The position numbers were made by a program, and so were the translations under genes. From Porphyromonadaceae bacterium (lineage in GTDB: Bacteria > Bacteroidota > Bacteroidia > Bacteroidales > UBA12481): DNA of 64,000 bases. The notes under the pieces are model-generated. The model had not been told where the DNA came from, ran no database searches, and saw only the letters and a program-made list of their open reading frames with translations. The stretch spans positions 69 through 64,068 of the forward strand of contig QYQM01000070.1 in NCBI GenBank assembly GCA_007280905.1, written 5' to 3'. Below are positions 1 through 62,236 of the stretch, piece by piece (positions within the stretch are counted from its first letter, which is position 1; every line of letters begins with the position of its first letter).

Positions 1-68
1 CCCCTTGAGCCTTACTTGAGCCTTGCGCCTCGAGCCTTACTTGAGCCTTGCGCCTTGAGCCTTGAGCC
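1..68. repeat. Tandem heptanucleotide array (units TTGAGCC / TTGCGCC / TCGAGCC with TTAC interruptions) directly 3' of the aminopeptidase gene; truncated by the window edge
   Basis: Read directly: 'ttgagcc ttac ttgagcc ttgcgcc tcgagcc ttac ttgagcc ttgcgcc ttgagcc ttgagcc'. The same unit family recurs at 22050-22119 and 59674-59694. Confidence 0.85.
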
Positions 69-1451
69 TTATCTTAAGCACTCAACCTCGGCAACAGTCT
101 TTGGTACCGCCTTGCCAAGCACCTTATAACCGGTTTTAGTTACAAGCACATCATCCTCGATGCGGATGCCTCCGAAGTCTTTGTATTTTTCAACTTCAGC
201 ATAATTGATGAAGCCGGTATGCTGGCCTTCGGCTTTCCATTGGTCAATCAAGGCCGGGATGAAATAGCACCCGGGTTCAACAGTGAGAACGAAGCCGGGT
301 TGTAGCCTGCGTGCCAGGCGCAGGAAGGCAAGTCCGAACTGGCTGGCTGGCTGGATTTCATCATCATATCCCACATATATCTGACCGAGGTTTTCCATAT
401 CATGCACATCAAGCCCCATCATGTGTCCCAATCCGTGCGGGAAGAACAGGGCATGAGCACCGGCTGCGACAGCGTCATGAGGACTTCCTTTCATCAGACC
501 AATCTCTTTGAGAGCATCGACCATGGCTCTGGCAGCAAGCAGATGAACATCTTTATAGAAAATACCGGGTTTAATGGCCGCTATGGCTTTGAGGTTTGCC
601 TGTAAAACGGCCTCATAAACAGCTTTCTGCCTACTGTTGAATTTCAGTCCGACGGGAACTGTACGGGTAAGATCAGAAGCATAATGAAGGGAAGTTTCAC
701 ACCCGGCATCCACCACCATCATCCGGCCCGGCTGAAGGATCTGACTATGATCATGATTGTGAAGCGTTTGTCCGTTCATACTTAGAATAACCGGGAACGA
801 AACCGGTCCACCGTGGGCTAATGCAATCCCCTCAATCGTACCGGCAATCTCCTGCTCCCAGGTACCGGGCATAGCCATTTTCATTGCTGTGGTATGCATC
901 AGGCAGGCGGTATCCACTGCCTTTTCGATCTCTATTATCTCATGCTGATCTTTGATCGAGCGCTGGGCAACCACGGCCTTGATCAGGCTAATAGATGATT
1001 TTGCCTTCAGACCGGCTGCGGGAATTTTAACCAACCGCTCAAGCTCGAGAATCGTTTCACCGCGATAGGGTGGTGTAACGTGAATTTCCCTTCCCTGACT
1101 GAGTGCTTTGGCAATCATTTTATCCAGATCGGCATAGGGAGCCGTATGGGTGACACCCACTTTGGTTGATAATTCTGCAATTGAGGGAAGAACACCCATC
1201 CAGATGATATCATCCATATCCACATTGTTACCGAAAATCCAGTCATGGCCGGAATCCAGATCAATCACACCAGCTAATCCGGTATGATCCAATCCGAAAT
1301 AATAGAGGAATGTGCTATCTTGCCTGAAATGATACTGGTTTGCCGGGTAATTGAAAGCGGCATCCACGTTTCCGGGCAATAAAATGAGTCCGCTGCCCAT
1401 GTTTTTGCGGAGCTGGGCTCTTCTGTATACGTAAATCTGTGATTCAAACAT
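69..1451 (-). CDS. pepP: Xaa-Pro aminopeptidase (peptidase M24B)
   Basis: The ORF carries M24 metal-ligand motifs: 'VVDAGCE', 'SDLTRT', 'HGLGHMMGLDVHD', 'LTVEPG', 'IRIEDDV'. I set the start at the internal Met 'MFESQIY' (cat at 1449-1451) rather than the ORF-track Met at 1487. Confidence 0.85.
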   Translation of the reverse strand: MFESQIYVYRRAQLRKNMGSGLILLPGNVDAAFNYPANQYHFRQDSTFLYYFGLDHTGLAGVIDLDSGHDWIFGNNVDMDDIIWMGVLPSIAELSTKVGVTHTAPYADLDKMIAKALSQGREIHVTPPYRGETILELERLVKIPAAGLKAKSSISLIKAVVAQRSIKDQHEIIEIEKAVDTACLMHTTAMKMAMPGTWEQEIAGTIEGIALAHGGPVSFPVILSMNGQTLHNHDHSQILQPGRMMVVDAGCETSLHYASDLTRTVPVGLKFNSRQKAVYEAVLQANLKAIAAIKPGIFYKDVHLLAARAMVDALKEIGLMKGSPHDAVAAGAHALFFPHGLGHMMGLDVHDMENLGQIYVGYDDEIQPASQFGLAFLRLARRLQPGFVLTVEPGCYFIPALIDQWKAEGQHTGFINYAEVEKYKDFGGIRIEDDVLVTKTGYKVLGKAVPKTVAEVECLR

Positions 1452-13732: not shown

Positions 13733-14083
13733 ATGGAAATAAAAATTATTAAGACAGAAGAAGATTATAATCAGGCTCTAAAGAGACTTGAAGTTGTTTT
13801 TGATGCGCCGGTGGATACACCTGAAGGCGATGAGGCGGAACTATTAGGATTATTGGTTGAGAAATTCGAAGATGAACATTATCCGATTGAATCACCGGAC
13901 CCGATTACAGCAATTAAGTTCCGGATGGAGCAGATGAATATGGATAACCAGGATTTAGCTAATGTGATAGGATATAAAAGCAGAGTTTCTGAGATTTTCA
14001 ATCTTAAAAGGAAATTGACTCTTAAAATGATAAGAAGCCTTCATGAAAAGTTGAAAATACCCTATGAATCCTTAATTACATAA
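13733..14083 (+). CDS. higA: HigA-type antitoxin (HTH / XRE-like C-terminal domain)
   Basis: 116 aa. The N-terminus 'IKTEEDYNQALKRLEVVFDA' and C-terminus 'MEQMNMDNQDLANVIGYKSRVSEIFNLKRKLTLKMIRSLHEKLKIP' are typical of YgjM-like HigA. Confidence 0.75.
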   Translation: MEIKIIKTEEDYNQALKRLEVVFDAPVDTPEGDEAELLGLLVEKFEDEHYPIESPDPITAIKFRMEQMNMDNQDLANVIGYKSRVSEIFNLKRKLTLKMIRSLHEKLKIPYESLIT

Positions 14084-14141
14084 TCCATCGCCCAACTGTT
14101 GTTTATCAATCGTTTTTAATGCTTTATTTCCTAAACTTTTC

Positions 14142-14175
14142 GACCTTTACAATAAACAGACCTTTACAATAAAAT
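14142..14175 (+). repeat. Exact 15-nt motif GACCTTTACAATAAA repeated twice in tandem (17-nt period) 23 nt upstream of the first T9SS cargo gene
   Basis: 'gacctttacaataaaca gacctttacaataaaat', read directly. Confidence 0.8.
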
Positions 14176-14197
14176 CGTTTTCAATAAATAATCTGTT

Positions 14198-17100: not shown

Positions 17101-17575
17101 CACTTCACCCGACAGTGTCTGGATTAAACTGGTTGATTTAAAACCGCCGAGTACCCAAGCCTGGGTTTGGGATACCACGCAGGTTAACCTTCCGGAAAAA
17201 GCCCTGACATCCAGGGCACAAATTGGTTTCTTTTATGATAATTCAAACCAATTTGCCTGGGGTGCAGCAGTTGACGATGTGGATCTTTTCGTGAATACTA
17301 CCTCTGTTCAAACTATTGACAATCCTATCTCGATGAGAGTATTTCCCAATCCTAACCAGGGCCTGTTCAGTGTCGAATTAGCTTCCGGTGCAACAGGTAA
17401 AATCAAACTGCAGGTAGTCAATATCACCGGTCAGGTGATTCTCGAAAAGTGGTTTGAAAATAATTCGGGAACATTGGTGGAAATGATCGACCTTGGTACT
17501 CAGCCGAAAGGGGTGTATCAACTCACCATCCGGTCGAAATCCGCCGAATGGATACAAAAGATAACGATCCAATAG
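14198..17575 (+). CDS. Sortilin/VPS10-like BNR (Asp-box) beta-propeller protein with FN3, choice-of-anchor-J-like domain and T9SS type A C-terminal sorting domain (1125 aa)
   Basis: Signal peptide; multiple 'S.DGG.TW' Asp-boxes ('THDGGLTWAS', 'SDDGGLTWQQ', 'TLDGGENWTK', 'SENGGDTWTL', 'SVDGGKNWQI'). C-terminal 'FPNPNQGLFSVEL...LQVVNITGQVI...GVYQLTI' is a Por secretion tail. Confidence 0.8.
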   Translation: MTHKPLMLLLLSVFLLMGGLSVSAQNKPVTAPKDYASYPYWIDMMQDPHGNFFEIQKAFYTYWEGREVTRGTGYKPFKRWEYYWQYRINPDGTFPEPGQVYREYNNYVQTHPVDAGLKTGQAVWQELGPKSRVDYGGYVGVGRINAIGFHPTDTATVYIGAPSGGFWITHDGGLTWASPTDNLPTLGVSAILVNPTSPNLILIGTGDRDGGNSNGLGVFRSDDGGLTWQQFNTGMGNVTVGMFARPESNLRFILAAANGGIFKTLDGGENWTKTSPDNSNYRDVKFKPGSITIAYATADNGFYRSENGGDTWTLVPTSSGYPNGGRLVIGVTPANDSLVYLVGGAAKFQGCFLSRNFGQSFVTQSTTPNILGYEYDGSDDKSQAWYDLMIHIDLTNPLIVYVGGVNIWKSVDGGKNWQIVGHWWGDRTNEVHADQHTFAFNPANNRLYAGNDGGIYYTGNQGTSWKEISEGLGIGQLYKIGVSNTDSKKITGGFQDNGSATWTGTNWLNSGGGDGMECAVDPYDARYSYTSLYYGSLTRYYNNSGGRNVAAKGTNGITEDGAWVTPFLISESGGNTMVVGYKNIWISQNVKSNGTITWTKISDNLAGRNDVNMSVLEQSPADFNFLFAARSDNKLFRTDNLLTPPVVWTDITSRLPVNGNPSDLECHPYDPNTVYMVLNQKVYKSTNKGSSWQNISGSLPAINISTIVFDKTSNEGLYIGTDAGTFYKDADRSDWVMYGESFPVSVGVSELEIYNDPRNRAESRLRASTFGRGVWEINLAESHAVLPPALLTATTVDSNIELTWVPPFYEQNIQGYRIYRNGEFLTMISGVSFTDMNVESDVTFTYKISALYIGGIESGFTNEAFATIVSPIELPYSQPFEKGTAGWTAKFSYEGWKYGTAETLAVTGRDGHFFAANSAAAGEGVQVKDYLFTPVIDLSSYTGKTITLKFAYTMRKYRTYDKFSVVYRTSPDSVWIKLVDLKPPSTQAWVWDTTQVNLPEKALTSRAQIGFFYDNSNQFAWGAAVDDVDLFVNTTSVQTIDNPISMRVFPNPNQGLFSVELASGATGKIKLQVVNITGQVILEKWFENNSGTLVEMIDLGTQPKGVYQLTIRSKSAEWIQKITIQ

Positions 17576-17589
17576 GCGAGAAATTAATA

Positions 17590-20500
17590 ATGAAAACAAT
17601 GGCCTCCCGTTTCATTGGTATCCTTATGATATCAATAGCTTTCGGCTCTGTGGCTTTTGCTCAGAACCGGAGTAACCCCGCCGTTACTGATTATGCTTCA
17701 AATCCACGGTGGATTGAAATGATGGAGGATCCTAAAGCTAATTTTTTTGAAATCCAGAAAGCCTTTTATACTTACTGGCAAGGCCGGGTTACCCATCGGG
17801 GCGATGGGTACAAACCATTCAAGCGCTGGGAGTATTATTGGCAATTCAGGGTTAATCCTGATGGGTCCTTTCCTCCGGCTGGCCAGATATTACGTGAATA
17901 CGAGCGGTTTGCCGCTGAACAGCCGGAGGGGCCGGGATTCAAATCGGGCAATGCAAACTGGATCGAACTCGGTCCTAAAACCCGTGTTGACGTTGGTGGC
18001 TATGTCGGTATCGGCCGGCTGAATGCCATTGCCTGTCACCCATCGGATACCAGTATTGTTTATGCAGGGGCTCCCTCGGGCGGACTTTGGAAATCGACCG
18101 ACGGAGGGAAAAACTGGGCGGTTCTCACGGACCGGATGCCTTCGCTGGGCGTTTCCTCTATCCTGATACACCCATCGAAGCCTGATGACATCCTGGTTGG
18201 AACGGGCGACCGTGATCACGGGGATGCCCGTGGCATCGGAGTCATTCACAGCACTGATGGAGGCACAACCTGGGAAATGTACAATAAAGGGATGGGTGAA
18301 TTTACAGTCGGAATGATGGATCGGAGCGACTCCAACCCGGATTTTATTCTGGCAGCCACGAACCGTGGAATTTTCAAAACCTCCAACGGCGGGGCTCAAT
18401 GGGAATTAAAATTCAATCCCGAAGGAGCTGCTTTTAAAGATATCAAGCTAAAACCGGGCAATTCAAACATCGCTTATGCAACCTCTGTTGGTGTTGTTGG
18501 TTTTTATCGCAGCGAAGATGCCGGCGAAACCTGGGTCCAGGTTCCTGATACCGCCGGAGTACCCACGCAAGGCAGATTGGTTATCGGAGTTACTCCGGCC
18601 GCCAGCAACCTGGTTTACCTGGTTTGCGGTGCAGCTGCTTATGTGGGCTGCTTTGTATCCCAGGACGACGGTAAAAACTTTATCCTGCAGTCGGCTTCTC
18701 CAAATATACTCGGGTATGCTTCTGACGGAAGCGATACCGGAAGCCAGGCCTGGTATGACCTGTCTATCTTTGTCAACCCTGTAAGCGCTCAGGAAGTCCA
18801 TGTGGGAGGAGTAAACCTATGGAGATCGGATAATGGCGGAAAAAGCTGGAAAATTACTGGACACTGGACAGGCAGCGGTGCTGCCGAAGTTCACGCCGAT
18901 CAGCACACTTTTTACTATAATCCGGTGAACAAACGGCTCTATGCCGGAAATGACGGAGGTATCTATTTTACCGATAACCGTGGAACTACCTGGAAAGAAA
19001 TCAGTGTAGGGCTCGGAATCGGACAAATCTATCGTCTCGGGGTCAGTGTAACCAACCCTTATAAGGTGGTTACCGGCTTCCAGGATAACGGAAGTGCCAC
19101 CTGGACGGGCAAGGAATGGCTGACTTCAGGCGGAGGCGATGGAATGGAATCCGCAGTTGATCCAACTGATTATCAGTATAGTTATACAACCCTTTATTAT
19201 GGCACTATCACGCAATTATTATTTAATGGTTACAACCGCCAGGTTGGCGGCAATGGAACCGGGGGTATCGATGAAACTGGCGCCTGGGTCACTCCTTATC
19301 TGATCCATCAGGACGACGGAAACACCATGATAGCCGGTTATAAAAACATCTGGATCACTCATGACCTCAAAAATCCGAATACCCTTTCGTGGAAGAAAAT
19401 CTCCAATAATCTGGCCGGAACCGATGACGTTTACGTGGCCGCACTGGAACAGTCGCCTGCCCAGCCGCAGATGCTGTATGTTTCACGTTACGACCGCAGA
19501 CTGTTCCGAACCGACGATTTTAATAAACCAATCCCGGTTTGGATCGATCTGACATCGAATTTACCCATTGAAGCAACCCCAAGCGACCTGGAATGCCACC
19601 CGTTTGATCCGATGACCGTTTATATGACACTGGCCGGACGAGTGTTTAAATCGGCTGATAAAGGGGAAACCTGGACAGACATCAGCGGGTCCCTTCCTTA
19701 TATTTCCATGAACACCATTTTCTTCGACGAATCAAGCGTGGAAGGGCTATACGTTGGAACTGATGCAGGCGTATATTTCAAAGATGCCGGAATGACCGAC
19801 TGGGTATTTTACAATACCAACCTGCCTTTATCGGTTGAAGCAAGTGAACTGGAAGTTTATTACGATCACCTCGACCGTTCAAAATCCAGGCTGCGTGCTT
19901 CCACCTTCGGACGGGGATTATGGGAAACACCGCTGGCCGCCTCCGACCCCATTCTGCCTGCCACCTTTCTTGAGGCTGTCAATGGCAAAGACAAGATAAC
20001 CCTATATTGGAACACGCCATTTTACCCGCAATACGTATCAAATTACAAGATCTTCAGAAACAATATCCTGTACGGCGTCAGCAGCACTCTATCCTGGTCC
20101 GATGATCAGGTTGAACACAATACAGACTATACCTATTATATCGTTGCAGAATATGCCAATTCTACTGAGGCAAAACCTTCCAACGCAGTATCATCCATCC
20201 TGATTGATCCCGCGACACTTCCCTATTCTGCAGATTTTGAATCCAGTACCGCGGGATGGACTTCTACCAAAACAGTTAACGGATGGAATTACGGCACTGC
20301 CGGCGAGCTCGGCATTTCCGGAAATGACGGATATTTTTTTGGCATTAAGGGTGTAGAATCGACTGCCGATAATAAAGTTACCGATTGCCTGATTTCCCCC
20401 GCCGCCGATCTTTCCTCGTACAAGGAGTCAGTGGTAACTCTGTCATTTGATTACAGTTATTTACGGTCTCCTGAATTTGGCAAATTGAATGTCGTTTACC

Positions 20501-20976
20501 GGGTTTCGCCTGACAGCACCTGGGTATCCCTGCTAAGCCTGAGCCCTCCAAATGCCAGCATTTATGCCTGGGACAGCGTAACCCTCATCCTTCCGGCTGA
20601 AGCGCTGAAGGCAGCCACGCAGGTTGGATTCCTCTATGAAAACCATGGAAACTCAATTGGAGGAGCCGGAATTGACAATATTCAACTGACCGCAAGATCA
20701 ATGGGGATTCTTGAAAATAGTACCCGGATATCCTGCCGGATCTTCCCGAATCCAAATAACGGCATATTTCAGATTGAAGTAACCTCGAAACAGCCGGGCA
20801 AGATCAGCATTCAGATAATCAATCTGAATGGCCAAATAGTGCTTGATGAACAATTAAACAACGATAACGGTCAGATAATCAAATCCTTTGACCTCCGGAG
20901 TCAGGCCAAAGGAGTCTATCAAATCCGTATTCAAACCTCAGAAGGCAACCGGACCGAACAAATAATGATTAAATAG
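17590..20976 (+). CDS. Tandem paralog of 14198-17575 (sortilin/BNR propeller T9SS cargo, ~1128 aa)
   Basis: Collinear with the upstream gene along the whole length (e.g. 'NFFEIQKAFYTYW.GR....G.GYKPFKRWEYYWQ.R.NPDG.FP'). Ends with 'FPNPNNGIFQIEV...IQIINLNGQIV...GVYQIRI'. Start set at 'MKTMASRF...' because the track start at 17548 overlaps the upstream gene. Confidence 0.8.
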   Translation: MKTMASRFIGILMISIAFGSVAFAQNRSNPAVTDYASNPRWIEMMEDPKANFFEIQKAFYTYWQGRVTHRGDGYKPFKRWEYYWQFRVNPDGSFPPAGQILREYERFAAEQPEGPGFKSGNANWIELGPKTRVDVGGYVGIGRLNAIACHPSDTSIVYAGAPSGGLWKSTDGGKNWAVLTDRMPSLGVSSILIHPSKPDDILVGTGDRDHGDARGIGVIHSTDGGTTWEMYNKGMGEFTVGMMDRSDSNPDFILAATNRGIFKTSNGGAQWELKFNPEGAAFKDIKLKPGNSNIAYATSVGVVGFYRSEDAGETWVQVPDTAGVPTQGRLVIGVTPAASNLVYLVCGAAAYVGCFVSQDDGKNFILQSASPNILGYASDGSDTGSQAWYDLSIFVNPVSAQEVHVGGVNLWRSDNGGKSWKITGHWTGSGAAEVHADQHTFYYNPVNKRLYAGNDGGIYFTDNRGTTWKEISVGLGIGQIYRLGVSVTNPYKVVTGFQDNGSATWTGKEWLTSGGGDGMESAVDPTDYQYSYTTLYYGTITQLLFNGYNRQVGGNGTGGIDETGAWVTPYLIHQDDGNTMIAGYKNIWITHDLKNPNTLSWKKISNNLAGTDDVYVAALEQSPAQPQMLYVSRYDRRLFRTDDFNKPIPVWIDLTSNLPIEATPSDLECHPFDPMTVYMTLAGRVFKSADKGETWTDISGSLPYISMNTIFFDESSVEGLYVGTDAGVYFKDAGMTDWVFYNTNLPLSVEASELEVYYDHLDRSKSRLRASTFGRGLWETPLAASDPILPATFLEAVNGKDKITLYWNTPFYPQYVSNYKIFRNNILYGVSSTLSWSDDQVEHNTDYTYYIVAEYANSTEAKPSNAVSSILIDPATLPYSADFESSTAGWTSTKTVNGWNYGTAGELGISGNDGYFFGIKGVESTADNKVTDCLISPAADLSSYKESVVTLSFDYSYLRSPEFGKLNVVYRVSPDSTWVSLLSLSPPNASIYAWDSVTLILPAEALKAATQVGFLYENHGNSIGGAGIDNIQLTARSMGILENSTRISCRIFPNPNNGIFQIEVTSKQPGKISIQIINLNGQIVLDEQLNNDNGQIIKSFDLRSQAKGVYQIRIQTSEGNRTEQIMIK

Positions 20977-21092
20977 ATCGACATGAACCTGTGAAAATAT
21001 CCACCCTTATCCTTTCAATAGCAATGATTCCATTCGGGAGGAACTATTGCTCTTTACCCCTCAGCCAGGCTTCCTCCCCAAATAACCCCATT

Positions 21093-21836
21093 ATGCAAAA
21101 ACGATACTGCCTCGCGCTTGATCTCAGGAAGGATTCTGCCCTGATCAGCCAATACAAACATGTTCATACCAAAGAAGGCATCTGGCCCGAAATTCCAAGA
21201 GGAATCAAAGAGGTCGGGATAACTGATATGGAGATATACCTGTGGGACAACCGCATGTTTATGATCCTGGAAGTTCCCATGAACTGGGACTACGATTCGG
21301 AAATGGCCAGACTAGGCAAATTGGAGAAACAAGCGGAATGGAGTGACTATGTTTGGCAGTTCCAGCAGCTTCTCCCCTATTCTAAAAACGGAGAAAAATG
21401 GATCCAGATGGAAAAAGTGTTCCACCTGAATCCTGCCGGTATAAAAGGAACCGCAAAAGCTGGTTATACCGAGCCGACCTATGATAAACCCTCCAAACGA
21501 TTTTGCGCGACACTGGACCTCAGGGATAACCCGGAATTAATCAGTCAATACCGCTATTATCACTCGCCCGAAGGACATTGGCCCGAAATATCCAAAGGGA
21601 TCAGATCAGTCGGGATCTTCGATATGCAAATCTACCTTATCGGCAACAGGATGTTCATGATAACGGAAACGATACCTGGTTTTCAATGGAACGAGCAAAT
21701 GCAAAAGCTGTCGACCCTTGAAAAACAGAAGGATTGGGAGGCCCTGATGAAAAAATTCCAGCAGGCACTGCCCGGAACAAAGGAGATAAAATGGGAGCTT
21801 ATGGAAAATGTTTTTGATCTGAACCGTGATTTTTAG
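21093..21836 (+). CDS. Fused tandem L-rhamnose mutarotase (RhaM/DUF718-like) domains
   Basis: Two homologous ~110-aa halves: 'KRYCLALDLRKDSALISQYKHVHTKEGIWPEIPRGIKEVGITDMEIYLWDNRMFMILE' and 'KRFCATLDLRDNPELISQYRYYHSPEGHWPEISKGIRSVGIFDMQIYLIGNRMFMITE'. The ATG at 21093 is preferred over the upstream GTG at 20991, but that 34-codon extension cannot be excluded. Confidence 0.7.
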   Translation: MQKRYCLALDLRKDSALISQYKHVHTKEGIWPEIPRGIKEVGITDMEIYLWDNRMFMILEVPMNWDYDSEMARLGKLEKQAEWSDYVWQFQQLLPYSKNGEKWIQMEKVFHLNPAGIKGTAKAGYTEPTYDKPSKRFCATLDLRDNPELISQYRYYHSPEGHWPEISKGIRSVGIFDMQIYLIGNRMFMITETIPGFQWNEQMQKLSTLEKQKDWEALMKKFQQALPGTKEIKWELMENVFDLNRDF

Positions 21837-23110
21837 TTGCCTTTGAGCATCCCTTTAACCACATTCAAATCTCCATCAGTTTTAGCAGGTGTGATCTCCA
21901 GCAGTTTCGCCAGCAATTCGTAAATATGGACATTTTCGAAGGCAGGTTGCACAAATCCTTTCTTAAACGAAGGCCCGTCAGCATAGAAAATCCCATGCAT
22001 ATCCCGATTATCCGGATCATACCCATGCATCCCCAAACTATACTGCATCTTGCGCCTTGAGCCTTGCGCCTTGAGCCTTGAGCCTTGCGCCTTGAGCCTT
22101 GAGTTTATTGCCTTGTGCCTTATTTCGAGGCCCCATGCGCTATCGGCTTCAACTATGAGTTGCGGTATGCGCAAATGGGTCCCATAATGATAGCGGGCCG
22201 GCAGCTCTTCACGCTTCCATACTTTCAGGTGCGGAGTCGATCTGAGCTGGTTGTATACCTCATCCAGATAAGCAGGCTCCGGTTCCAGGTTGATGACAGG
22301 ATTGCCCCCGTTTATTCTTTTTATCTTTTTCAGATCTAAAATATCTTCGAGAAAAACCTGCTGTCCTTCAGGAATATAACCCATTCCATGGTCCGAAAGG
22401 ATGATCAGGTCAATTCCCAGGCCGGACTTCTTTTCAATTCTTTTCAATACATCCGTCAGGACCCCCACCAGCCGGTCGAGTTTCTTTACTTTCTCTTCCG
22501 TTTCCTTGCTGACCGGGCCAAAGTCATGACTCGTTTTATCGGGTTCATCGAAATAGAACATGATCAGTGCCGGCCGTTCATTTGAAGGGAGAGATAACCA
22601 GCTGAATACGGTATCGATCTGCTGTTTAAAAGGGAATCCCTCCTCATAAATTTTTCTATTTTCCGGGCGGTAACGCTCATTGCTTTCGGTACCCACCCAG
22701 AAATAAGATGCTGTTCTGACTCCTTGTTTTTCAGCCGTTTCCCAAATGGCTTCCCCTTCCCAGAAAATTGAATCCTCCACGGCCTGGCGATCCCCCATAC
22801 GGAAAACACGGTCGAGCTTCGGATCATAAAAACTATTCTGTACGATACCATTATGATCAGGATAGAGGCCCGTAGCGATGGCGTAATGATTCGGGAAAGT
22901 TTTAGTCGGATAGCTTGGCTTCAACGATTCTGCTCTGCAGCCTGCTTTGGCCAGCCGGTCGAGGTTTGGGGTATGATAAATTGCAGGATAGTCCCACCTG
23001 AAACCATCCATCGACAGGACTACCACACAATGATTATCTATCACACCCGCAATCAGAAAAGCTGGAGTCATCAGGAAGGCAAAGAGACAAAGGCGAAGTT
23101 TTTTTAACAT
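21833..23110 (-). CDS. Ectonucleotide pyrophosphatase/phosphodiesterase (alkaline-phosphatase superfamily), secreted
   Basis: 'VVVLSMDGFRWDY', nucleophile region 'YPTKTFPNHY', 'ILSDHGM', 'GMHGYDP'. A heptamer-repeat-encoded insert lies just before the GMHGYD motif. Confidence 0.8.
   Translation of the reverse strand: MLKKLRLCLFAFLMTPAFLIAGVIDNHCVVVLSMDGFRWDYPAIYHTPNLDRLAKAGCRAESLKPSYPTKTFPNHYAIATGLYPDHNGIVQNSFYDPKLDRVFRMGDRQAVEDSIFWEGEAIWETAEKQGVRTASYFWVGTESNERYRPENRKIYEEGFPFKQQIDTVFSWLSLPSNERPALIMFYFDEPDKTSHDFGPVSKETEEKVKKLDRLVGVLTDVLKRIEKKSGLGIDLIILSDHGMGYIPEGQQVFLEDILDLKKIKRINGGNPVINLEPEPAYLDEVYNQLRSTPHLKVWKREELPARYHYGTHLRIPQLIVEADSAWGLEIRHKAINSRLKAQGSRLKAQGSRRKMQYSLGMHGYDPDNRDMHGIFYADGPSFKKGFVQPAFENVHIYELLAKLLEITPAKTDGDLNVVKGMLKGN
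22050..22119. repeat. Ten tandem heptamers (TTGCGCC/TTGAGCC family) lying in frame inside the phosphodiesterase CDS
   Basis: Parsed unit by unit from 22050. On the coding strand they translate as 'HKAINSRLKAQGSRLKAQGSRRK', with a 21-nt (3-unit) period giving RLKAQGS. Confidence 0.9.
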
Positions 23111-23136
23111 AATGTATGACGGTTGGCAAATGGTTT

Positions 23137-23171
23137 ACAAAAGAAAGCCCCGTTAATATTAGCGGGGCTTT
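23137..23171 (-). terminator. Rho-independent terminator after the TonB-dependent receptor
   Basis: 9-bp stem 'aaagccccg'/'cggggcttt'. On the minus strand it is followed by 'TTTCTTTTGT'. Confidence 0.7.
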
Positions 23172-23188
23172 ACAATTATGTTCGCAAA

Positions 23189-26100
23189 TTAGTTAAAAAT
23201 ATATCTGATCGAAAGTTGTGCCTGCCATCTCGAACTCAGCAGCCCAGAGTCATCAATTCCCATAATACTGCCTTTAGGCTTGGTAAACGAGAATTGCGGA
23301 GTGGTTCCATCGCTCTTGAATCCTTGAAACTTGATCAGCGGGTAGGTACTGTAATAAGCCCCTGAAGCATAATATATGCGGCCCCAATCTTTATTGATCA
23401 GGTTACCCAGATTGTATACATCCAGACCGATTTGCAAGGTATTGCGTTTGCCTCCTACATTAATGTAGAAATCCTGTGCAATATGTAAGTCAAAGATGTT
23501 GGTAAACGGAACTCTTGAATGATTCCTTTCAACATAATTCCCTTTACGGGTGCTAAGATATGCATCGCTATTAATGAATGCTTCGAGGTCAGTCCACTGC
23601 TGGGCAGCAGAGAGGGTTACATCGCCCGCACTGTTTTTCAGGTCAACCAGGAAAATATCACTTTGATCTTTAGGAACATACATCAGTTCAAGACTTTGGT
23701 TGTCCTCTCCCAGGTACTTTGAGGAACCATCGGCGTAACCATATGAGAACCTCTCGCCGGACTGACCGGTGTAGAAGAGGGATATCGTAGTTGCGGCATG
23801 ATTGGCATAATCGATCTTATAGGATAAAAAGCTTACAATACGATGACCCAGGTCGAAATTGGAGATGGACAGATCGAGGTCGTTTTTCCCGCGAACGTTC
23901 GGAACACGCCATTGCGAAGAGTTCTGCGAAGAAACACCGTCGTTCATAGAATATGCACGGCCGAATGTATAGGCAACGCTACCCGAGAATCCTTTGGAGA
24001 AATTCTTGGTTAGCTGACCGGTAATATTATATGAATAACCTTTGTCGGTATTCGTTCCTAAAATAATATCGGTGTAGGCCCTGTTCTTATTGGTATTGGG
24101 ATCTTTGCCAAGGGCAATCTTCGACCAGATCGGACGATCGTCGCCGGTACCGGTAAGAGAATCAGTCTTGACATAGGCCAGATTATAATACATGATATTA
24201 TTGATGGTTTTGGAGAAAGTAAAGTCAATTGTTCCGACCAATCCCCAGGGAAGCTTTTTGTCAAGGGCAATTCCGGTACGGAAAATTTTTGGGAATTTGA
24301 AATCCTTCGCGAAGATATCCACCTGTCCTGACGGTTGGGTGGGTGGCAGTGACGGTTGATTGTTCCACTCGTGATTAAACAGCAATTCAGGTGAACCAGC
24401 GGCAGTAACCCTCATACCTCCTGTGATGACGGCATTATTCTGGAATGAAGCTCCCGGCCATACATAAGGAATGCGGCTGGTAAAGAGTCCGGCACCTCCC
24501 CTGATCTGAAGGGTTTTATCTCCCAGAACATCATAGTTGAATCCAACGCGCGGGTTGAGCATGATTTTGGGTGACGGAGTCTGCCCGGTTTTTGCACTTT
24601 TCAGATCCCAGCTCTTTTCTACTAAAATCGGAATTACATTATCATTGAAATCAGCATTGACTAAAGGCTGATCCAGGAACATAGGTATATCTGCACGCAA
24701 TCCGTAAGTCAGGTTAAATCTGTCACTGACCTGGAACTTATCCTGAATATAGAAACCGAATTGAACCGCTTTAAAGTTGGCAGCTGCCACTGATCCGTCG
24801 CCGGTAATATTATCAACTGCCGAAAATGTACGGTCGTATTGGTAAGCAGGTTTATCACCAAGAAAATCGGCGATACTGTTGAACTGGTAAGAACCGAAAT
24901 TCTGGCGGATGAACAGGTTGTACATCTTGTAAAACTCATTATGTGTACCAATAGTAATGGTATGCTTTCCAAAGTTCATGTCAAAATTGTCGGTCAGGGT
25001 AATAATATCCTGCTTCAGGTCATTTGCGGTTGAGAACTCTTCCGAGCCAAAGTAAATGTTGCTGTTGCCATCTTTAATCCTTACATATGGGAAATTATTA
25101 CCAATCGGATCTCTGTCATCCCTGACAAAAGTCAGGCCTAATATCAGGTTGTTACTTAACCTGTCGTTGAAATTGCTTTTAAGTTCAACGGCTGATGAAT
25201 TGGTAGTTGACGGGAAGAGGATACCGGAATTGGAGTATCTCAGGTTCGTTGTGCTCGAGTTACCCGGGCTAACCGAAACACCCCTTGTGTATTGATGCCT
25301 GATCATCAGTTTGTGCACTTTGCTGATATTCCAGTCAATGCGCCCGAATAACTTGGTTCCGTCAAGGGTCCTGCTGGCACCATCATAAACGCCCGGATCA
25401 TATCCCCAGGCAACCAGTTTGTCGTTCAGCTGAGTCAATTCCGCTGCGGTGACTGTACCCTGATAAGTGCCAAAATCAAATGGCTGGGGTGTTTCCTCTT
25501 TCTGAATTTCAGCATTAACAAAGAAGAAGAGTTTATTCTTGACAATCGGACCACCTAATCTGAATCCATAAATGCTTGAATTAAAGTTAGGAAGGTTAAT
25601 CCTCTGCTTGGAAGTATCATCAGTAGGGGTTTTTCCTGCCAGTGTTGCATTTCTCATATAATAGTAAGCCGATCCCTGAATCTCGTTTGTGCCCCGGCGT
25701 GTAACGGCGTTAATGCCGGCACCTGCAAAACCTCCGATTTTCACATCAAACGGAGCGACCTGAACGGAAAATTGTTCAATGATGTCAATACTGAACGGAG
25801 AAATACCGGCCTGGCCTCCATTGGTTCCCTGGTCAGTCAATCCAAAAACATCGTTACTGACAGCTCCGTCAAGATAAATTGAATTGAAGCGGTTATTCGT
25901 CCCGGCAATTTCAATACCGCCCAACTGGGTTACCCTGGCCTGAGGAGTTAACCGGGTAAAGTCAGTAATGCCCCTTGCAATGCTGGGCATACTTTGAATT
26001 TTTTCAATGGTGACATTAGTTTCCGTTCCTGTACTGTTCCCATCGAAAACATCCTTATCGCCACGTCGGCCAACTATGGCAATTTCGCCTAGCCTGACTT

Positions 26101-26446
26101 CCGTATTCTTTAACTGAACATTGATACGGTAAGTCTGCCCCAAAGTGAGGTAAATGTTCTCCTGGGTCCACGACTCAAAGCCTACAAACGTAACTTTCAC
26201 CGTGTAAGGTCCTCCAACCTCCATGTTCGGCAAGCGATACAAACCACCAGCATCGGTGCTGGCACCAAATAGCGAACCGGTTGGAACGTGCGTTGCAATT
26301 ACCGTTGCTCCGGGCAACGGTGAACCATCCGGGTTGGTAACTTTACCGTTGATCCCGGAGGTTGTGATCTGGGAATAGCCACTGACCGCAGTGAACACAC
26401 CCAAAGCAATGAATAATAAAAACCTGATTAAATTTCTCATACACAA
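23189..26446 (-). CDS. TonB-dependent receptor with N-terminal carboxypeptidase-regulatory-like domain (1085 aa); no adjacent SusD
   Basis: Signal peptide; 'GKVTNPDGSPLPGATVIATH...GGLYRLPNMEVGGPYTVKVTFVGF'; plug region; long beta-barrel ending in the aromatic C-terminus '...LSIRYIFN'. Confidence 0.85.
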   Translation of the reverse strand: MCMRNLIRFLLFIALGVFTAVSGYSQITTSGINGKVTNPDGSPLPGATVIATHVPTGSLFGASTDAGGLYRLPNMEVGGPYTVKVTFVGFESWTQENIYLTLGQTYRINVQLKNTEVRLGEIAIVGRRGDKDVFDGNSTGTETNVTIEKIQSMPSIARGITDFTRLTPQARVTQLGGIEIAGTNNRFNSIYLDGAVSNDVFGLTDQGTNGGQAGISPFSIDIIEQFSVQVAPFDVKIGGFAGAGINAVTRRGTNEIQGSAYYYMRNATLAGKTPTDDTSKQRINLPNFNSSIYGFRLGGPIVKNKLFFFVNAEIQKEETPQPFDFGTYQGTVTAAELTQLNDKLVAWGYDPGVYDGASRTLDGTKLFGRIDWNISKVHKLMIRHQYTRGVSVSPGNSSTTNLRYSNSGILFPSTTNSSAVELKSNFNDRLSNNLILGLTFVRDDRDPIGNNFPYVRIKDGNSNIYFGSEEFSTANDLKQDIITLTDNFDMNFGKHTITIGTHNEFYKMYNLFIRQNFGSYQFNSIADFLGDKPAYQYDRTFSAVDNITGDGSVAAANFKAVQFGFYIQDKFQVSDRFNLTYGLRADIPMFLDQPLVNADFNDNVIPILVEKSWDLKSAKTGQTPSPKIMLNPRVGFNYDVLGDKTLQIRGGAGLFTSRIPYVWPGASFQNNAVITGGMRVTAAGSPELLFNHEWNNQPSLPPTQPSGQVDIFAKDFKFPKIFRTGIALDKKLPWGLVGTIDFTFSKTINNIMYYNLAYVKTDSLTGTGDDRPIWSKIALGKDPNTNKNRAYTDIILGTNTDKGYSYNITGQLTKNFSKGFSGSVAYTFGRAYSMNDGVSSQNSSQWRVPNVRGKNDLDLSISNFDLGHRIVSFLSYKIDYANHAATTISLFYTGQSGERFSYGYADGSSKYLGEDNQSLELMYVPKDQSDIFLVDLKNSAGDVTLSAAQQWTDLEAFINSDAYLSTRKGNYVERNHSRVPFTNIFDLHIAQDFYINVGGKRNTLQIGLDVYNLGNLINKDWGRIYYASGAYYSTYPLIKFQGFKSDGTTPQFSFTKPKGSIMGIDDSGLLSSRWQAQLSIRYIFN

Positions 26447-26705
26447 AAAGTTTAGGTTATAATAAATTGATTGACTACATGTTACTTTGGAAAAAAATCT
26501 TCTGCATCAAAAGAAACGATTTTCCCCAAATCCAACCTAAAATAAACATTAAGTTTTATCTGCAAAGAGATTTATCTACTCTGTTATCAACATGTTTTTA
26601 TATCCACAACATTTTTCACCCGTTAACTCTTTTTGAATTCTATAATTCTTTAACTTAATTAAATATTTTACCTAAATTCTTTTTTATCAACTCATTACGT
26701 AACCA

Positions 26706-27521
26706 ATGAAAAAGAAAATTTTACTCTTGGGGCTACTTATGGCAGGCCTGGTCCTTGCCAACGCCCAGGTTACTGTTACCTCCTCAACAGGCCTTTATGA
26801 GGAACCATCGTTAAAATCAATAAGAATTGCCACCGTCATCGAAGGTGAAAATGTAATTTTGGGGGAGAAAACCGGAGAATTCTGGAAAGCTGTCGTCGGA
26901 AAAAAATCAGGCTACCTCCACGAATCCTGCTTGTCGAATTATGTTGACCCTAAAAAGTCCGGGAATACCGAACCAGTCATTGCTCCGGTCATCACGGTTT
27001 TACCCGCTAAATCTACTCAGGACACAGTGAACTTTGAACAATACGGCGGCCTCTTTTCCATTGGCATCGCTCTCGGCGGCGGAGGTCTTATTGGCCTGCC
27101 TGTGCGGCTGTTTCCCACACGCAACTTTGCCATTGAGCTAGGAGTTTATGCGCGCGGAATGATCGCGACAAAAACCTTTGTGGGTTTAAACCTGAATGGT
27201 GGTTTAAATTTTTACTTCAAGGATAGTTTTAACCCCAAAAAGAAAAAATTCAGACATGACGGAGCTTTCCTGAGGGGAGGAAAAACTTTCTACAATGCTG
27301 ATATTAAAGACATTATTATAATGGGCGGCTGGACTCGTGACCATTTCAAATTGGGGACAACCGATAGAGTTTTTACTTTGGAGCTCGGAGTGGGTCTCAA
27401 CTCAATGAAATATACCGAAACTACCTCAGGTTCTTGGGGTTATGAAACAACCACCTATTCAGGAAATACACCGATGCTATTTTGGAAATTTGCATGGAGC
27501 CTATTTCCCAAGAAACACTAA
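26706..27521 (+). CDS. Secreted protein: SH3b-like N-terminal domain plus small beta-barrel-like C-terminal domain
   Basis: Signal peptide 'MKKKILLLGLLMAGLVLANAQ'. An SH3_3-like segment ('GLYEEPSLKSIRIATVIEGENVILGEKTGEFWKAVVGKKSGYLHESCL') and a Gly/aromatic-rich C-terminal half. Confidence 0.45.
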   Translation: MKKKILLLGLLMAGLVLANAQVTVTSSTGLYEEPSLKSIRIATVIEGENVILGEKTGEFWKAVVGKKSGYLHESCLSNYVDPKKSGNTEPVIAPVITVLPAKSTQDTVNFEQYGGLFSIGIALGGGGLIGLPVRLFPTRNFAIELGVYARGMIATKTFVGLNLNGGLNFYFKDSFNPKKKKFRHDGAFLRGGKTFYNADIKDIIIMGGWTRDHFKLGTTDRVFTLELGVGLNSMKYTETTSGSWGYETTTYSGNTPMLFWKFAWSLFPKKH

Positions 27522-27678
27522 AGTAATTCGGGCGCAAAATAAACGATTCCCCCAAATCGGGTCTAATTTTTAAATGCTTGAGCTGATGGCAGGTTAATCA
27601 ATCGTGTTATCAGCAGTTTAAGTTTGTGTCAAATCGGTTGAATCATTGTGTAGTTTTACCCTTGCCAATTTTTAAAAA

Positions 27679-28074
27679 ATGAAAAATCAATCGCTTGGAT
27701 TTGCAGTTGTCTTGCTTTTTTTGTTTTCTGGTTGCCTTAAAGAACCAGGAATCGGAGGGACCTCTACGATAACCGGTAAAGTCTATGCATATGATTATGA
27801 TTCTGAGATGAATAACCTGAGGGCACAGTACTATGCCCCCGATGAGGACGTTTATATTATTTATGGCAAAGATTCCGTTTTCTCCGACCGCACGCAAACC
27901 AGTTTCGATGGTTCCTACCGGTTCGAATACCTCAGGCCGGGAACCTATACCCTCTTTGCCTATAGTAAAAACATTGTAACCAAGTTGCCACCTTTAATGC
28001 CGATCAAAAAAACTGTGGAGATTCTGTCGAACAATCAGGTTTTGACAGTCGATGATATTGAAATCAACAAATAA
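27679..28074 (+). CDS. Small lipoprotein with carboxypeptidase-regulatory-like (Ig-like) fold
   Basis: Lipobox 'LFLFSGC'; 'ITGKVYAYD...SFDGSYRFEYLRPGTYTLFAY'. The stop overlaps the next start (TAATG). Confidence 0.6.
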   Translation: MKNQSLGFAVVLLFLFSGCLKEPGIGGTSTITGKVYAYDYDSEMNNLRAQYYAPDEDVYIIYGKDSVFSDRTQTSFDGSYRFEYLRPGTYTLFAYSKNIVTKLPPLMPIKKTVEILSNNQVLTVDDIEINK

Positions 28075-29562: not shown

Positions 29563-29581
29563 TTCCGGCAGCTACCCTTTA

Positions 29582-59634: not shown

Positions 59635-60909
59635 ATGGAACAAAAACATCCATATCGCTATAAACTTCATTTCTTGCGCCTTGTGCCTTGTGCCTTTTAT
59701 CTTAACCTGGCATGGAGAAATATATGGCGAAACAAGCGCCGGTCGCTGATTACTATCTCCTCCATCCTGTTTGCGGTCTTTTTTTCGGTCGTAATGCGCG
59801 GATTTCAGCTTGGCTCCTATAAGAATATGGTGGACAACGTCGTGCAGGCCTATACCGGATATATCCAGGTATTCGACCGTAAATTCCAGTCCGATAAGAT
59901 TATAGAAAACACCATCCTGATGGATGACCGAATCATTTCAGAAATCGAAAAGAATAAAAACGTGACGATGGCTTTGCCGCGGCTGGAATCATTTGCACTG
60001 GCCAGTTCCGGCAATCAGACGAAAGGCGTGCTGGTGCTCGGGACCGATCCGGATAAAGACGATCAGCTTACGCATCTTTCCAGGAGGTTGGTGCAGGGCA
60101 CCTTTCTACATAATAGCGACAGCGCGGCAATAGTATCGGAACGGCTGGCCAAATACCTGAAGGTGAGTATCGGCGATACGCTGGTGCTGATTTCGCAGGG
60201 ATTTCACGGAGCTGGTGCAGCCGGGAAATTCCTCGTAAAAGGAATCTTAAGGTTTCCTTCGCCCGACCTGGACAACAAAATGGTGTATCTCCCCCTGGTC
60301 CAGGCACAACAGTTTTTCTCGGCCGAAAACCGGGTAACATCGATCTCTTTGAACCTGAAGAACAGCAACGATCTGAGCAGAACGGTGAAAAAACTTCAGC
60401 AAAAGCTAGGTACTCAATATGATGTTCGTTCGTGGGATACGATCCTGGTGGAACTCAAACAGCAGATCGGGTCGGACAGCGCCGGTGGCCTGATCATGCT
60501 CGGAATGCTCTACCTGATCATCGGTTTCGGGGTTTTCGGTACTGTCCAGATGATGACTGCCGAACGGCGCCGGGAATTCGGTGTCGTAGTTGCTGTAGGA
60601 ATGCAGAAAAGGCGCCTCGGCACCATTCTCGCCTTGGAAATGCTTATTATGGGGCTTATCGGCATTGCTGCGGGAATCCTTCTCAGCATTCCGGTGGTTT
60701 GGTGGGGCCATGTTCACCCGATCACGCTCACCGGCAAGATGGCCGAGTCGATCATCCAATATGGAATGGAACCGATCATGCCAACGGCCTGGGAAGCTGG
60801 TTACGTCATCAATCAGACGCTCGTAGCGATGCTCATCGTTTTCGCCGCCGTCATCCTGCCGGTCTGGAACGTCACACGCCTCCGGGTCACCAAAGCCCTT
60901 CGCTCTTAA
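59635..60909 (+). CDS. ABC transporter permease, FtsX/MacB-type (4 TM plus periplasmic domain)
   Basis: 'LAWRNIWRNKRRSLITISSI', a large periplasmic loop and a C-terminal 3-TM FtsX domain. The first ~20 codons run through a heptamer array, so the true start may be an internal TTG/GTG. Confidence 0.8.
   Translation: MEQKHPYRYKLHFLRLVPCAFYLNLAWRNIWRNKRRSLITISSILFAVFFSVVMRGFQLGSYKNMVDNVVQAYTGYIQVFDRKFQSDKIIENTILMDDRIISEIEKNKNVTMALPRLESFALASSGNQTKGVLVLGTDPDKDDQLTHLSRRLVQGTFLHNSDSAAIVSERLAKYLKVSIGDTLVLISQGFHGAGAAGKFLVKGILRFPSPDLDNKMVYLPLVQAQQFFSAENRVTSISLNLKNSNDLSRTVKKLQQKLGTQYDVRSWDTILVELKQQIGSDSAGGLIMLGMLYLIIGFGVFGTVQMMTAERRREFGVVVAVGMQKRRLGTILALEMLIMGLIGIAAGILLSIPVVWWGHVHPITLTGKMAESIIQYGMEPIMPTAWEAGYVINQTLVAMLIVFAAVILPVWNVTRLRVTKALRS
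59674..59694. repeat. Three heptamers (TTGCGCC TTGTGCC TTGTGCC) at the 5' end of the permease ORF
   Basis: Read directly. Same unit family as 1-68 and 22050-22119. Confidence 0.8.
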
Positions 60910-60943: not shown

Positions 60944-62236
60944 ATGATACCATCCCTCTCCTGGAAAAACATCTGGCGCAACAAGGTCCGGAGCCTGGTT
61001 GTGATCGCAGCGATGACCTTCGGGATCTTCGGAGGACTCTTCACTTCCGCGATCTATAAAGGCATGAGTGACCGAAGGGTGAAAGAGGCACTTACCAAAG
61101 AAGTTGCTCATATCCAGATACATGATCCGAAATTTATTGAGAATCCGGAAATCGGGCTGACTTTGCCCGATCCCGGTGGAATTGTCCGGTTTGCCGAAGG
61201 GCTGCCGGGAGTTAAGGCTGCAACTGACCGGCTGAAGATCGTAACCATGATCAACAGTTCGGCTGCGTCATCCGGGGTCACCGTGTACGGGATCGATCCG
61301 GATAAAGAAAAGGAAGTGAGTGAATTATATACTTCCGTCTATGATTCACTGATACTTGCCGACAAACTCAAGCTGACAGATCCGGCACTCATCGGAACGT
61401 ATCTGAAAGACAGTACGGGAAGCTGGTTCGGTGGATCGCAGCGTAACCCGATCGTCATCGGCGAAACCCTGGCGCGCAAGCTGAAATTAAAAATCAATTC
61501 CAAGGTGGTACTCACCTTCCAGAGCGCTGACGGCAGCCTTACCGGCGGGTCCTACCGGGTATGCGGGATTTACCGTCTCGAGAACAATGCGTTTGAAGAG
61601 ATGAATGTGTACGTCAGGAAACCGGATCTGGCTTCACTTGCCGCTCTTACCTCAGAGGACGCCCACGAGGTAACCATTTTCATGAACGATCCCAAAAAGG
61701 TGGGTTCTGCGATGGAATCCATCAGGGCCGAGTATCCCGATCTGGATGTTATGGACTGGAAAACCCTGCTGCCTGATGTGGCCATGCTGAACGACCTTTT
61801 GGTGGTGTCGATGATAGTGATCATGGTGATCATCCTCGCCGCGCTGGGCTTCGGGATCGTCAACACTATGCTGATGGTGGTGCTTGAGCGGGTGAAAGAG
61901 CTCGGCATGCTGATAGCTGTCGGGATGAACAAGCTCAGGGTTTTCAACATGATTATTCTCGAATCGGTTCTGCTCTGCCTCACCGGCGCCATTGCCGGGA
62001 TGGGTATCAGTGCCGTAGTGATTGAGATCTTTAACAAGCAGGGCATCGACCTCACTGCCTACGCACAGAAAGGCATGGAAGCCTGGGGTTACAGTGCGGT
62101 GATGTACCCGAACCTCTCCTGGAACTTCTACCTGATCGTAGCTGCCCTGGTGGTGATCACCGGCATCGCCGCCTCAGCCTACCCAGCCTGGAAAGCATTG
62201 AAGCTTAACCCGGCAGATGCGCTAAGAACAGAGTGA
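60944..62236 (+). CDS. ABC transporter permease, FtsX/MacB-type (second paralog)
   Basis: 'LSWKNIWRNKVRSLVVIAAM', a periplasmic loop, and the FtsX C-terminal domain ending 'AYPAWKALKLNPADALR'. Confidence 0.85.
   Translation: MIPSLSWKNIWRNKVRSLVVIAAMTFGIFGGLFTSAIYKGMSDRRVKEALTKEVAHIQIHDPKFIENPEIGLTLPDPGGIVRFAEGLPGVKAATDRLKIVTMINSSAASSGVTVYGIDPDKEKEVSELYTSVYDSLILADKLKLTDPALIGTYLKDSTGSWFGGSQRNPIVIGETLARKLKLKINSKVVLTFQSADGSLTGGSYRVCGIYRLENNAFEEMNVYVRKPDLASLAALTSEDAHEVTIFMNDPKKVGSAMESIRAEYPDLDVMDWKTLLPDVAMLNDLLVVSMIVIMVIILAALGFGIVNTMLMVVLERVKELGMLIAVGMNKLRVFNMIILESVLLCLTGAIAGMGISAVVIEIFNKQGIDLTAYAQKGMEAWGYSAVMYPNLSWNFYLIVAALVVITGIAASAYPAWKALKLNPADALRTE

Follow-up and report, generated by a model that had tools for sequence, protein, structure and literature searches.

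A variable, in-frame heptanucleotide repeat array in a predicted disordered loop of an NPP-type phosphodiesterase gene from a freshwater Bacteroidales bacterium

We analyzed a 64,000-nucleotide (nt) stretch of DNA, referred to here as the window, from an uncultured freshwater Bacteroidales bacterium (contig QYQM01000070.1 of GenBank assembly GCA_007280905.1). One of its genes, which encodes a predicted ectonucleotide pyrophosphatase/phosphodiesterase (NPP), contains an array of heptanucleotide units of the form AAGGCNC. This array probably arose by expansion of a genome-wide heptamer repeat within a tolerant, disordered loop of the secreted phosphodiesterase; it is hypervariable, yet constrained to the reading frame. 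In the reading that we favor, AAGGCNC is a lineage-wide dispersed family of simple sequence repeats (SSRs), and the NPP copy nucleated on a proto-repeat of one to two units, formed by native codons for R-H-K-A-Q in a disordered loop just upstream of a motif with a His ligand. Replication slippage or unequal exchange may then lengthen and shorten the array, its units may be remodeled by point mutation or by conversion among them, and purifying selection on the enzyme would remove every frame-breaking variant, so that out-of-frame alleles would exist only as transient nulls. The outcome would be a polymorphism in loop length and loop sequence among strains and species, with roughly 5 to 29 added residues, many of them K, Q, G, S, R, or E, and no ON/OFF switch.

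RESULTS

The NPP gene and its heptamer array

The array lies within an open reading frame (ORF) of 425 codons; its coordinates and those of the other features are collected in Table 1. The ORF product matched the PF01663 profile over its full length (6.6e-86, 289 bits against a cutoff of 23; residues 29 to 365; profile positions 1 to 342 of 342), and the Xanthomonas NPP 2gsn matched it at 3.2e-71. Seven residues (D35, T71, D191, H195, D240, H241, and H362) were invariant across 34 homologs in an alignment of the window NPP, and we take these Thr, Asp, and His residues to be the nucleophile and the two-site metal ligands known from the published Xanthomonas axonopodis NPP structures. An AlphaFold2 model built with 34 homologs reached a mean predicted local distance difference test score (pLDDT) of 83 and a predicted template modeling score (pTM) of 0.84, and its top Foldseek matches were the X. 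axonopodis NPP structures 7mw8, 7n1s, and 2gsn, with target-normalized TM-scores of 0.88 to 0.89 (0.89 for 7mw8). Profile, conserved residues, and predicted fold all identify the product as a putative NPP or type I phosphodiesterase of the alkaline phosphatase superfamily.

On the plus strand, positions 22050 to 22119 consist of ten units, TTGCGCC TTGAGCC TTGCGCC TTGAGCC TTGAGCC TTGCGCC TTGAGCC TTGAGTT TATTGCC TTGTGCC, seven of them canonical TTG[A/C]GCC and three degenerate (TTGAGTT, TATTGCC, and TTGTGCC). In the register of the gene, the full array has 11 units, which in the sense direction are AAGGCAC AAGGCAA TAAACTC AAGGCTC AAGGCGC AAGGCTC AAGGCTC AAGGCGC AAGGCTC AAGGCGC AAGATGC. They encode residues ~331 to 356 (RHKAINSRLKAQGSRLKAQGSRRKMQ), followed by YSLGMHGYD, and the translation of the array region within ORF 21833..23110 reads ...HKAINSRLKAQGSRLKAQGSRRKMQYSLGMHGYD. 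The array is in frame in the sense that the ORF reads through it; the 70-nt or 77-nt array itself is not a multiple of 3. It is located ~78% into the ORF, just upstream of the invariant G-x-HGYD motif.

Tandem Repeats Finder (TRF) described positions 22049 to 22103 both as a period of 7 (7.9 copies, 89% matches, score of 89) and as a period of 21 (2.6 copies, 97% matches, score of 103), with a looser period-21 row reaching 22121. The longest perfect self-match of the array was 29 nt at a shift of 21, compared with 18 nt at a shift of 14 and 13 nt at a shift of 7. At most two neighboring units are identical, and units ending in CTC and CGC alternate; thus, the best slippage register of the array is 21 nt, which preserves the frame. 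The 21-nt super-period appears to be the signature of a recent frame-preserving 21-nt duplication. Simulated gains or losses of one or two units removed the HGYD motif and the C terminus, while a loss of three units kept the frame. An earlier note on this DNA, made from the sequence alone, had reported about ten TTGAGCC/TTGCGCC units at 22050 to 22119 in the NPP coding sequence, their translation immediately before GMHGYD, the same unit in an array at 1 to 68, and the loss of the C terminus upon any change other than by three units. The sequence and TRF agree with the first of these observations, the ORF with the second, matches of one 14-mer to both arrays with the third, and the simulation with the last.

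In the structure model, the repeat-encoded residues 333 to 354 had pLDDT values below 50, one of only three such segments, and were modeled as coil, within a longer coil between the strand at residues 327 to 329 and the strand that begins at the metal-ligand motif. The 2gsn sequence shows a 16-residue gap opposite the repeat. The repeat-encoded segment is rich in K, Q, G, S, and R, and these properties fit a predicted disordered surface loop that is able to accept insertions.

The array differs between near-identical strains

A metagenome contig (L002; European Nucleotide Archive ERZ27245777) was colinear with positions 13784 to 33109 of the window (19.3 kb). Outside the array patch, the two differed by one single-nucleotide polymorphism and one single-base indel in ~19.2 kb. 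The L002 array has 7 units plus 1 nt instead of 11 units, a net shortening of 27 nt that leaves the gene in frame, and within the patch there were at least 10 substitutions inside units and a different right-hand junction. The NPP array was the only substantially different stretch across the colinear 19.3 kb. Both alleles have an odd, degenerate third unit (TAAACTC in one and ATAACAC in the other). An independent Joint Genome Institute (JGI) contig (L001) carried a gene identical to that of the window, and unitigs of two sequencing runs (X1 and X2) reproduced both array junctions, extending 30 to 45 nt into the array without a mismatch. A contig of another run (X5) had a C>A change at 22034 (L357F). 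Single-base differences between near-identical assemblies cluster no more than ~15 to 35 nt from heptamer arrays (22034 and 22036 to 22037 at the NPP gene and 31, 80, and 102 at or beside the intergenic array 1), although the latter three also lie at a contig end and may be assembly errors.

The origin of this difference has one competing explanation that we judge unlikely but still the strongest of the alternatives, namely, that the patch is a short tract of homologous recombination, or an old allele unlinked from its flanks, derived from a relative with ~10% divergence, and is not the product of local hypermutation. The ~10 substitutions in ~90 nt (~11%) match the 86 to 89% identity of a related locus (L200), the right junctions of the two alleles differ, and both states of the TT/CC difference at 22036 to 22037 occur in relatives (TATAGCCTGGGG in L118 and L133 and TATAGTTTGGGG in L116 and L122). 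Additionally, array 1 kept its unit number across the same samples, and a third array was identical in another contig (L196). However, the L002 array was present in no sequenced relative examined, and the tract would need to fit within ~90 nt between identical flanks, whereas L116 differs at 5 of the 42 nt immediately upstream. The degenerate third unit common to both alleles also points to common descent of the two arrays. Recombination would concern only the origin of the variation and is compatible with our reading of the array as a frame-constrained expansion.

Independent expansions at orthologous codons

We extracted the DNA of the corresponding site from 40 related loci and measured segment lengths in 122 homologous proteins. 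The closest NPP match among genome contigs was 86% identical, in a collection in which the species itself was not found. The metagenome contig collection, in which this population is not represented, gave no exact match to the left flank, and a protein-based scan found relatives only. Insert-free orthologs carry the one- to two-unit seed as native codons (AAGGCAC AAGGCTC AAG, coding for H-K-A-Q). For example, the seed site is GAAATAAGTCACAAGGCTCAAGTAAAG in L116 and L201 (GAA ATA AGT CAC AAG GCT CAA GTA AAG) and GAAATAAGGCACAAGTCGGAT in L200 (GAA ATA AGG CAC AAG TCG). Expansions at the same codons used AAGGC[ACT]C or AGGGCNC in the clade of the window (L117, L118, L129, L133, and L202) and, elsewhere, AAGGCAG or AAGGCAT (L119 and L203), AAGGAGA (L123, L125, and L206 to L208), and AAGGCGA (L211). 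The presence of the seed in insert-free orthologs, together with the clade-specific unit variants at the same codons, shows that the array grew in place, and did so repeatedly, rather than being inserted.

The segment from the VEA strand to HGYD was 19 to 23 residues long in 66 proteins, 27 residues in 14, and 25 or 29 to 49 residues in 15. The 27-residue class is 5 to 7 residues above the base of 20 to 22 residues, and a full 7-residue step corresponds to one 21-nt, three-unit step. The lineage-specific extra length at the loop was roughly 5 to 29 residues. All of the expanded homologs were full-length proteins. No frameshifted allele was found among the 122 proteins or among ~35 close loci searched by tblastn, in which a frameshift would split the match. 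The tblastn matches all ran to residues 418 to 425, except for those of L214 and L217 (contig end on the C-terminal side) and L129 (N-terminal side); the end of contig L214 coincides with the first unit of the array. With a chance of one in three for each, it is very unlikely that ~10 distinct expanded length states would all be in frame, which indicates that selection on the enzyme filters the variants. For the lake populations, all 20 sequencing runs found are represented by Logan contigs, from which rare variants are dropped.

A second coding case was found in a related metagenome-assembled genome (MAG), Loclat_bin-16290. There, an ORF (L029 2059..3162) encodes the release factor methyltransferase PrmC (TIGR03534, 218 bits against an equivalog cutoff of 199), and the match falls into three stretches because two in-frame arrays of the AAGGCNC family, in opposite orientations, interrupt it. 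The sense array encodes KAQGSRLKAQGK..., and the antisense array, whose units are free of stop codons, encodes LEPCALRLEPS.... The two arrays together add ~85 residues in two loops of the methyltransferase. Since prmC is a housekeeping gene with no plausible reason to phase-vary, arrays seem to enter coding loops as a by-product and to be tolerated in this lineage.

These data bear on whether the NPP array might instead be maintained by selection for its instability. An improbable version of this idea is that the array is a hypermutable module, either a frameshift switch that works at low frequency, with OFF cells that consensus assemblies do not show, or a diversifying loop beside the active site, and that AAGGCNC spreads by lineage-specific nucleation on short seeds, including those in coding loops (NPP and PrmC). 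Slightly less probable still is a true contingency locus, in which a subpopulation would turn the secreted phosphodiesterase OFF and ON at random through the gain or loss of a single unit. Because 7 is not a multiple of 3, changes by one or two units destroyed HGYD and the C terminus in simulation. No other stretch varied substantially between two near-identical 19-kb contigs, and intragenic heptanucleotide SSRs with frameshifts are candidate phase variation loci in Haemophilus influenzae (PMC2651432). However, an OFF allele was unseen in ~35 close loci and in at least 29 proteins longer than the base length. The array contains no long homogeneous tract (a perfect match of 13 nt at the 7-nt shift versus 29 nt at the in-frame 21-nt shift), and the 27-nt length difference between the strain alleles is divisible by 3 owing to a compensating 1-nt change. 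Additionally, the array lies far from the 5' end of the ORF, in its last quarter, the same family occurs in frame inside prmC, and the gene belongs to a free-living lake organism, in which it stands beside a TonB-dependent receptor gene and near polyphosphate-related genes, not among surface antigen genes. Because OFF alleles are missing, the units are heterogeneous, the array is in the 3' part of the gene, and prmC provides a precedent, an evolved contingency switch is not supported.

The earlier note had proposed such a phase-variable switch, and this proposal is not supported: every recovered allele was in frame, the 21-nt register was the best, the array is ~78% into the ORF, and arrays of the family also lie in frame within prmC. 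Its other suggestion, a tolerated repeat in a surface loop, is the one we favor on the basis of the predicted disordered loop (residues 333 to 354, coil, pLDDT of <50), except that the repeat was not an insertion but grew in place from native codons. The variability in unit number that it anticipated was found: near-identical strains, and orthologs too, differ in the number and composition of units. The insert is absent from many orthologs, and insert-free orthologs carry the seed codons.

A dispersed family of AAGGCNC arrays

The NPP array is one copy of a dispersed heptameric SSR family, which, in the small sample examined, is mainly intergenic and often abuts stop codons. The 14-mer TTGMGCCTTGMGCC, with at most one mismatch, had 12 matches in the window versus 0.08 expected, and 0 of 100 shuffled sequences reached 12. 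These matches were confined to three sites (1 to 68, 22050 to 22098, and 59674 to 59687). More generally, a period of 7 was the commonest tandem repeat class in the window, with 12 TRF rows compared with 1.37 on average, and never more than 3, in 30 dinucleotide-shuffled sequences. In a scan for (AAGGCNC)4 with one genome per species, several arrays were found on separate contigs of Loclat_bin-16290, Bacteroidales SO_2017_GW1_194, and GWF2_49_14, and scattered matches were found in other phyla. In a small sample of contigs from related MAGs, the arrays were mostly outside long ORFs. A protein database search with the translated KAQGSRL repeat returned only hypothetical ORFs of 44 to 86 residues without a domain, presumably spurious calls over intergenic arrays; such a peptide search says little about real proteins with short arrays.

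We placed contigs of four lake or freshwater metagenome runs on the NPP locus, and ~100 contigs matched the array in the three deepest runs. In the same runs, the summed depth was 2000 to 7000 at the array versus 10 to 17 on its flanks, and unitigs bearing the flanks stopped inside the array. Array 1 is the right arm of a composite intergenic palindrome, the left part of which is cut off by the start of the window. The complete palindrome, found in another contig (L199 4131-4512), occupies the region between two convergent genes. It comprises an AAGGCNC array in forward orientation, a GC-rich hairpin, an array of the hexamer (GTGGGT)n, and a heptamer array in reverse orientation. Both heptamer arrays adjoin gene ends: the forward array begins 3 nt past one stop codon, and the reverse array, the counterpart of array 1, reaches the stop codon of the other gene. 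Folded as RNA, the L199 palindrome had a predicted energy of -196.7 kcal/mol (z = -13.35); its outer stem is formed by pairing between the heptamer arrays, and the element may be a bidirectional terminator or a 3' stabilizer. Array 3 is within ORF 59635..60909, which encodes a LolC/E-like ATP-binding cassette permease (NCBIfam lolCE match), and the L196 gene call takes the identical array in. It corresponds to residues ~14 to 21 of the called permease, and the conserved N terminus WRNIWRNKRRS starts just downstream (window 59635 to 59720); the true start codon may therefore differ from the one called, and array 3 may be either coding or part of the 5' untranslated region. The unit number differed between two strains for the NPP array, whereas those of arrays 1 and 3 were unchanged in the other contigs examined.

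Delivery of the array as a mobile or copy-pasted repeat element is very unlikely. The dispersal of the AAGGCNC unit over many loci and the occurrence of arrays as inverted pairs, both between genes and inside prmC, could suggest it, but the first one to two units are native codons in insert-free orthologs and distinct clades have distinct unit variants. There were also no target site duplications, terminal structures, transposase genes, or second copy of the flanks in the window. A target of a diversity-generating retroelement was rejected because the 64-kb window had no second copy of the patch flanks, only array-to-array matches, in an analysis that did not search specifically for reverse transcriptase genes. 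Finally, Logan unitigs break in the array, the window begins inside array 1, and contig L214 stops at the NPP array, but an artifact of short-read metagenome assembly is scarcely credible as the source of the array or of its variation, given the identical independent JGI contig, the junctions reproduced by the X1 and X2 unitigs, the reading frame kept in both alleles, and an array length (77 nt) below the k=141 word size of the MEGAHIT-style contig with the other allele (as judged from its k141_ name).

Gene neighborhood and other repeats

The upstream neighbor of the NPP gene, directly adjoining and on the same strand, is the TonB-dependent receptor gene (23189..26446). Genes with VTC, DUF4956, and DUF2490 domains lie nearby (21833 to 30500, with the gene content taken from L002); we take these domains to be linked to polyphosphate metabolism, and the surroundings suggest a phosphorus-scavenging neighborhood. 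The convergent ORF at 20991 to 21836 encodes a rhaM protein (L-rhamnose mutarotase, PF05336), the two halves of which have common motifs (ISQY(K/R)..H...G.WPEI..GI...GI.DM.IYL..NRMFMI), an apparent tandem duplication of the domain.

The genome represented by the window is rich overall in tandem repeats of 7 to 10 nt. Two further heptamer arrays, GAGTGAC (3.3 copies) and CGTGAAG (2.9 copies), stand back to back at the stop codon of a permease gene (60944..62236), and the units TTTGGGG (2.4 copies), GGTTGTC (4.9 copies), and ATTCCGA (4.1 copies) also occur; these arrays with other units occupy 62231 to 62278, 62375 to 62393, 56097 to 56130, and 3917 to 3944. A palindromic intergenic element whose arms are short tandem repeats (CCACGGAGACACGGAGAA ... 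TTCTCCGTGTCTCCGTGG) is present in two copies (2807 to 2911 and 58072 to 58182) and looks like a dispersed hairpin of the repetitive extragenic palindrome or miniature inverted-repeat transposable element type. A (TGGGTG)n hexamer array, a repeat class also found in the L199 palindrome, fills the spacer (13083 to 13123) between two tRNA-Arg genes (13009 to 13081, anticodon CCT, and 13159 to 13231, anticodon CCG).

Table 1. Positions of the NPP gene, its repeat array, and related features in the window
Feature	Position	Strand	Description
NPP-type gene	21833..23110	minus	ORF, 425 residues, N-terminal hydrophobic leader
Metal-ligand motif G360-M-H362-G-Y-D365	22016..22033	minus	G360, H362, G363, and Y364 invariant in homolog alignment
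Single-base variants adjoining the array	22034..22037	minus	22036-22037 TT/CC, synonymous, window versus L002
Full NPP array, gene register	22045..22121	minus	11 units of AAGGCNC (plus strand TTGNGCC), 77 nt
Array core with 21-nt super-period (7 residues, SRLKAQG)	22049..22103	minus	TRF period 21 and self-match
Proto-repeat seed AAGGCAC AAGGCA (R-H-K-A)	22108..22121	minus	Native codons, also in orthologs without expansion
Array 1, AAGGCNC family	1..70	minus	Begins at TAA stop codon (69-71) of minus-strand aminopeptidase P gene
Array 3, TTGCGCC TTGTGCC TTGTGCC TT	59674..59696	plus	Antisense to AAGGCNC orientation; called 5' end of ORF 59635..60909

DISCUSSION

Several points weigh against the interpretation of the NPP array as a frame-constrained expansion in a tolerant loop. 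The loop is assumed to be neutral, and slippage is a presumed mechanism that would not by itself produce the 10 or more substitutions and the changed right junction (..AAGATGCAGTAT versus ..CACAAGTAT) that separate the two strain alleles. Array 1, which is of similar length, did not vary in unit number among three contigs, each from a different metagenome sample and one from the sample that also yielded L002; thus, the arrays are not all equally unstable. Out-of-frame cells, as a minority, would be compatible with the data, given that Logan contigs drop rare variants. Gene callers and homology searches may also under-report frameshifted alleles, a concern that is lessened by the loci recovered with tblastn.

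Long SSRs with units of 5 to 11 nt, in which heptamers predominate, have been described before (Mrazek et al. 2007, as summarized in PMC4679880). Known heptamer families include TAACTGA in Beggiatoaceae, Cyanobacteria, and five Bacteroidetes (PMC4679880), the cyanobacterial short tandemly repeated repetitive (STRR) heptamers, GGGAATC in Xanthomonas, and GGGGA(C/T)T in Nostoc (PMC4692102). Arrays of these families lie mostly between genes, frequently next to stop codons on the coding strand, and few occur within coding sequence (PMC4679880, PMC4692102). Like them, AAGGCNC is a single lineage-specific heptamer with many dispersed arrays, of which the NPP array varies in copy number, and with occasional intragenic copies in the stop-free orientation. 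In contrast, neither AAGGCNC, with its free sixth position, nor its hosts, the freshwater Bacteroidales MAGs, were among the described families that we found, and the NPP copy lies inside an enzyme's catalytic domain instead of at a terminus and has expanded recurrently at orthologous codons in several clades.

The contingency loci of H. influenzae, such as (AATTTTG)14 inside hmw1A and (AACAACC)8-13 inside a TonB-dependent receptor gene (PMC2651432), resemble the NPP array in having a 7-nt unit within an ORF, in that single-unit changes shift the frame, and in that the unit number differs between strains. However, the H. influenzae tracts consist of many identical units, and frameshifted alleles occur among strains, whereas the NPP units alternate, an OFF allele was unseen, the array is 3' in the gene, and the host is free living. 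The NPP segment also behaves like the in-frame repeats of coding sequences that resemble variable-number tandem repeats, being flexible, of low complexity, and variable in length and sequence between strains with the frame preserved. It differs from these in that its 7-nt unit is not a multiple of 3, so that the frame is kept only by 21-nt steps or compensating indels. With the X. axonopodis NPP (2gsn and 7mw8) and the catalytic domains of ENPP1-7, the window protein has in common the fold, the nucleophile, the metal ligands, and a basic loop before G-x-HGYD, but its loop is longer by ~16 residues that the repeat encodes.

Heptameric SSR families and intragenic SSRs are thus already known, and the findings of moderate interest are the recurrent in-place expansion and the near-exclusive restriction of a strain difference to the array. 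If OFF variants were real, contingency-type switching would extend to a phosphorus-scavenging enzyme of a free-living lake bacterium, and if the array were a selectively maintained hypermutable module, the clade would have a built-in means of varying its enzymes. AAGGCNC represents an apparently undescribed heptamer family in freshwater Bacteroidales that breaks metagenome assemblies, yields spurious short ORFs, and can be mistaken for phase variation. The NPP loop is the fastest-changing stretch in 19 kb, and the locus offers a natural example of a repeat with a non-multiple-of-three unit that lives in an enzyme gene and persists only as frame-restoring variants.

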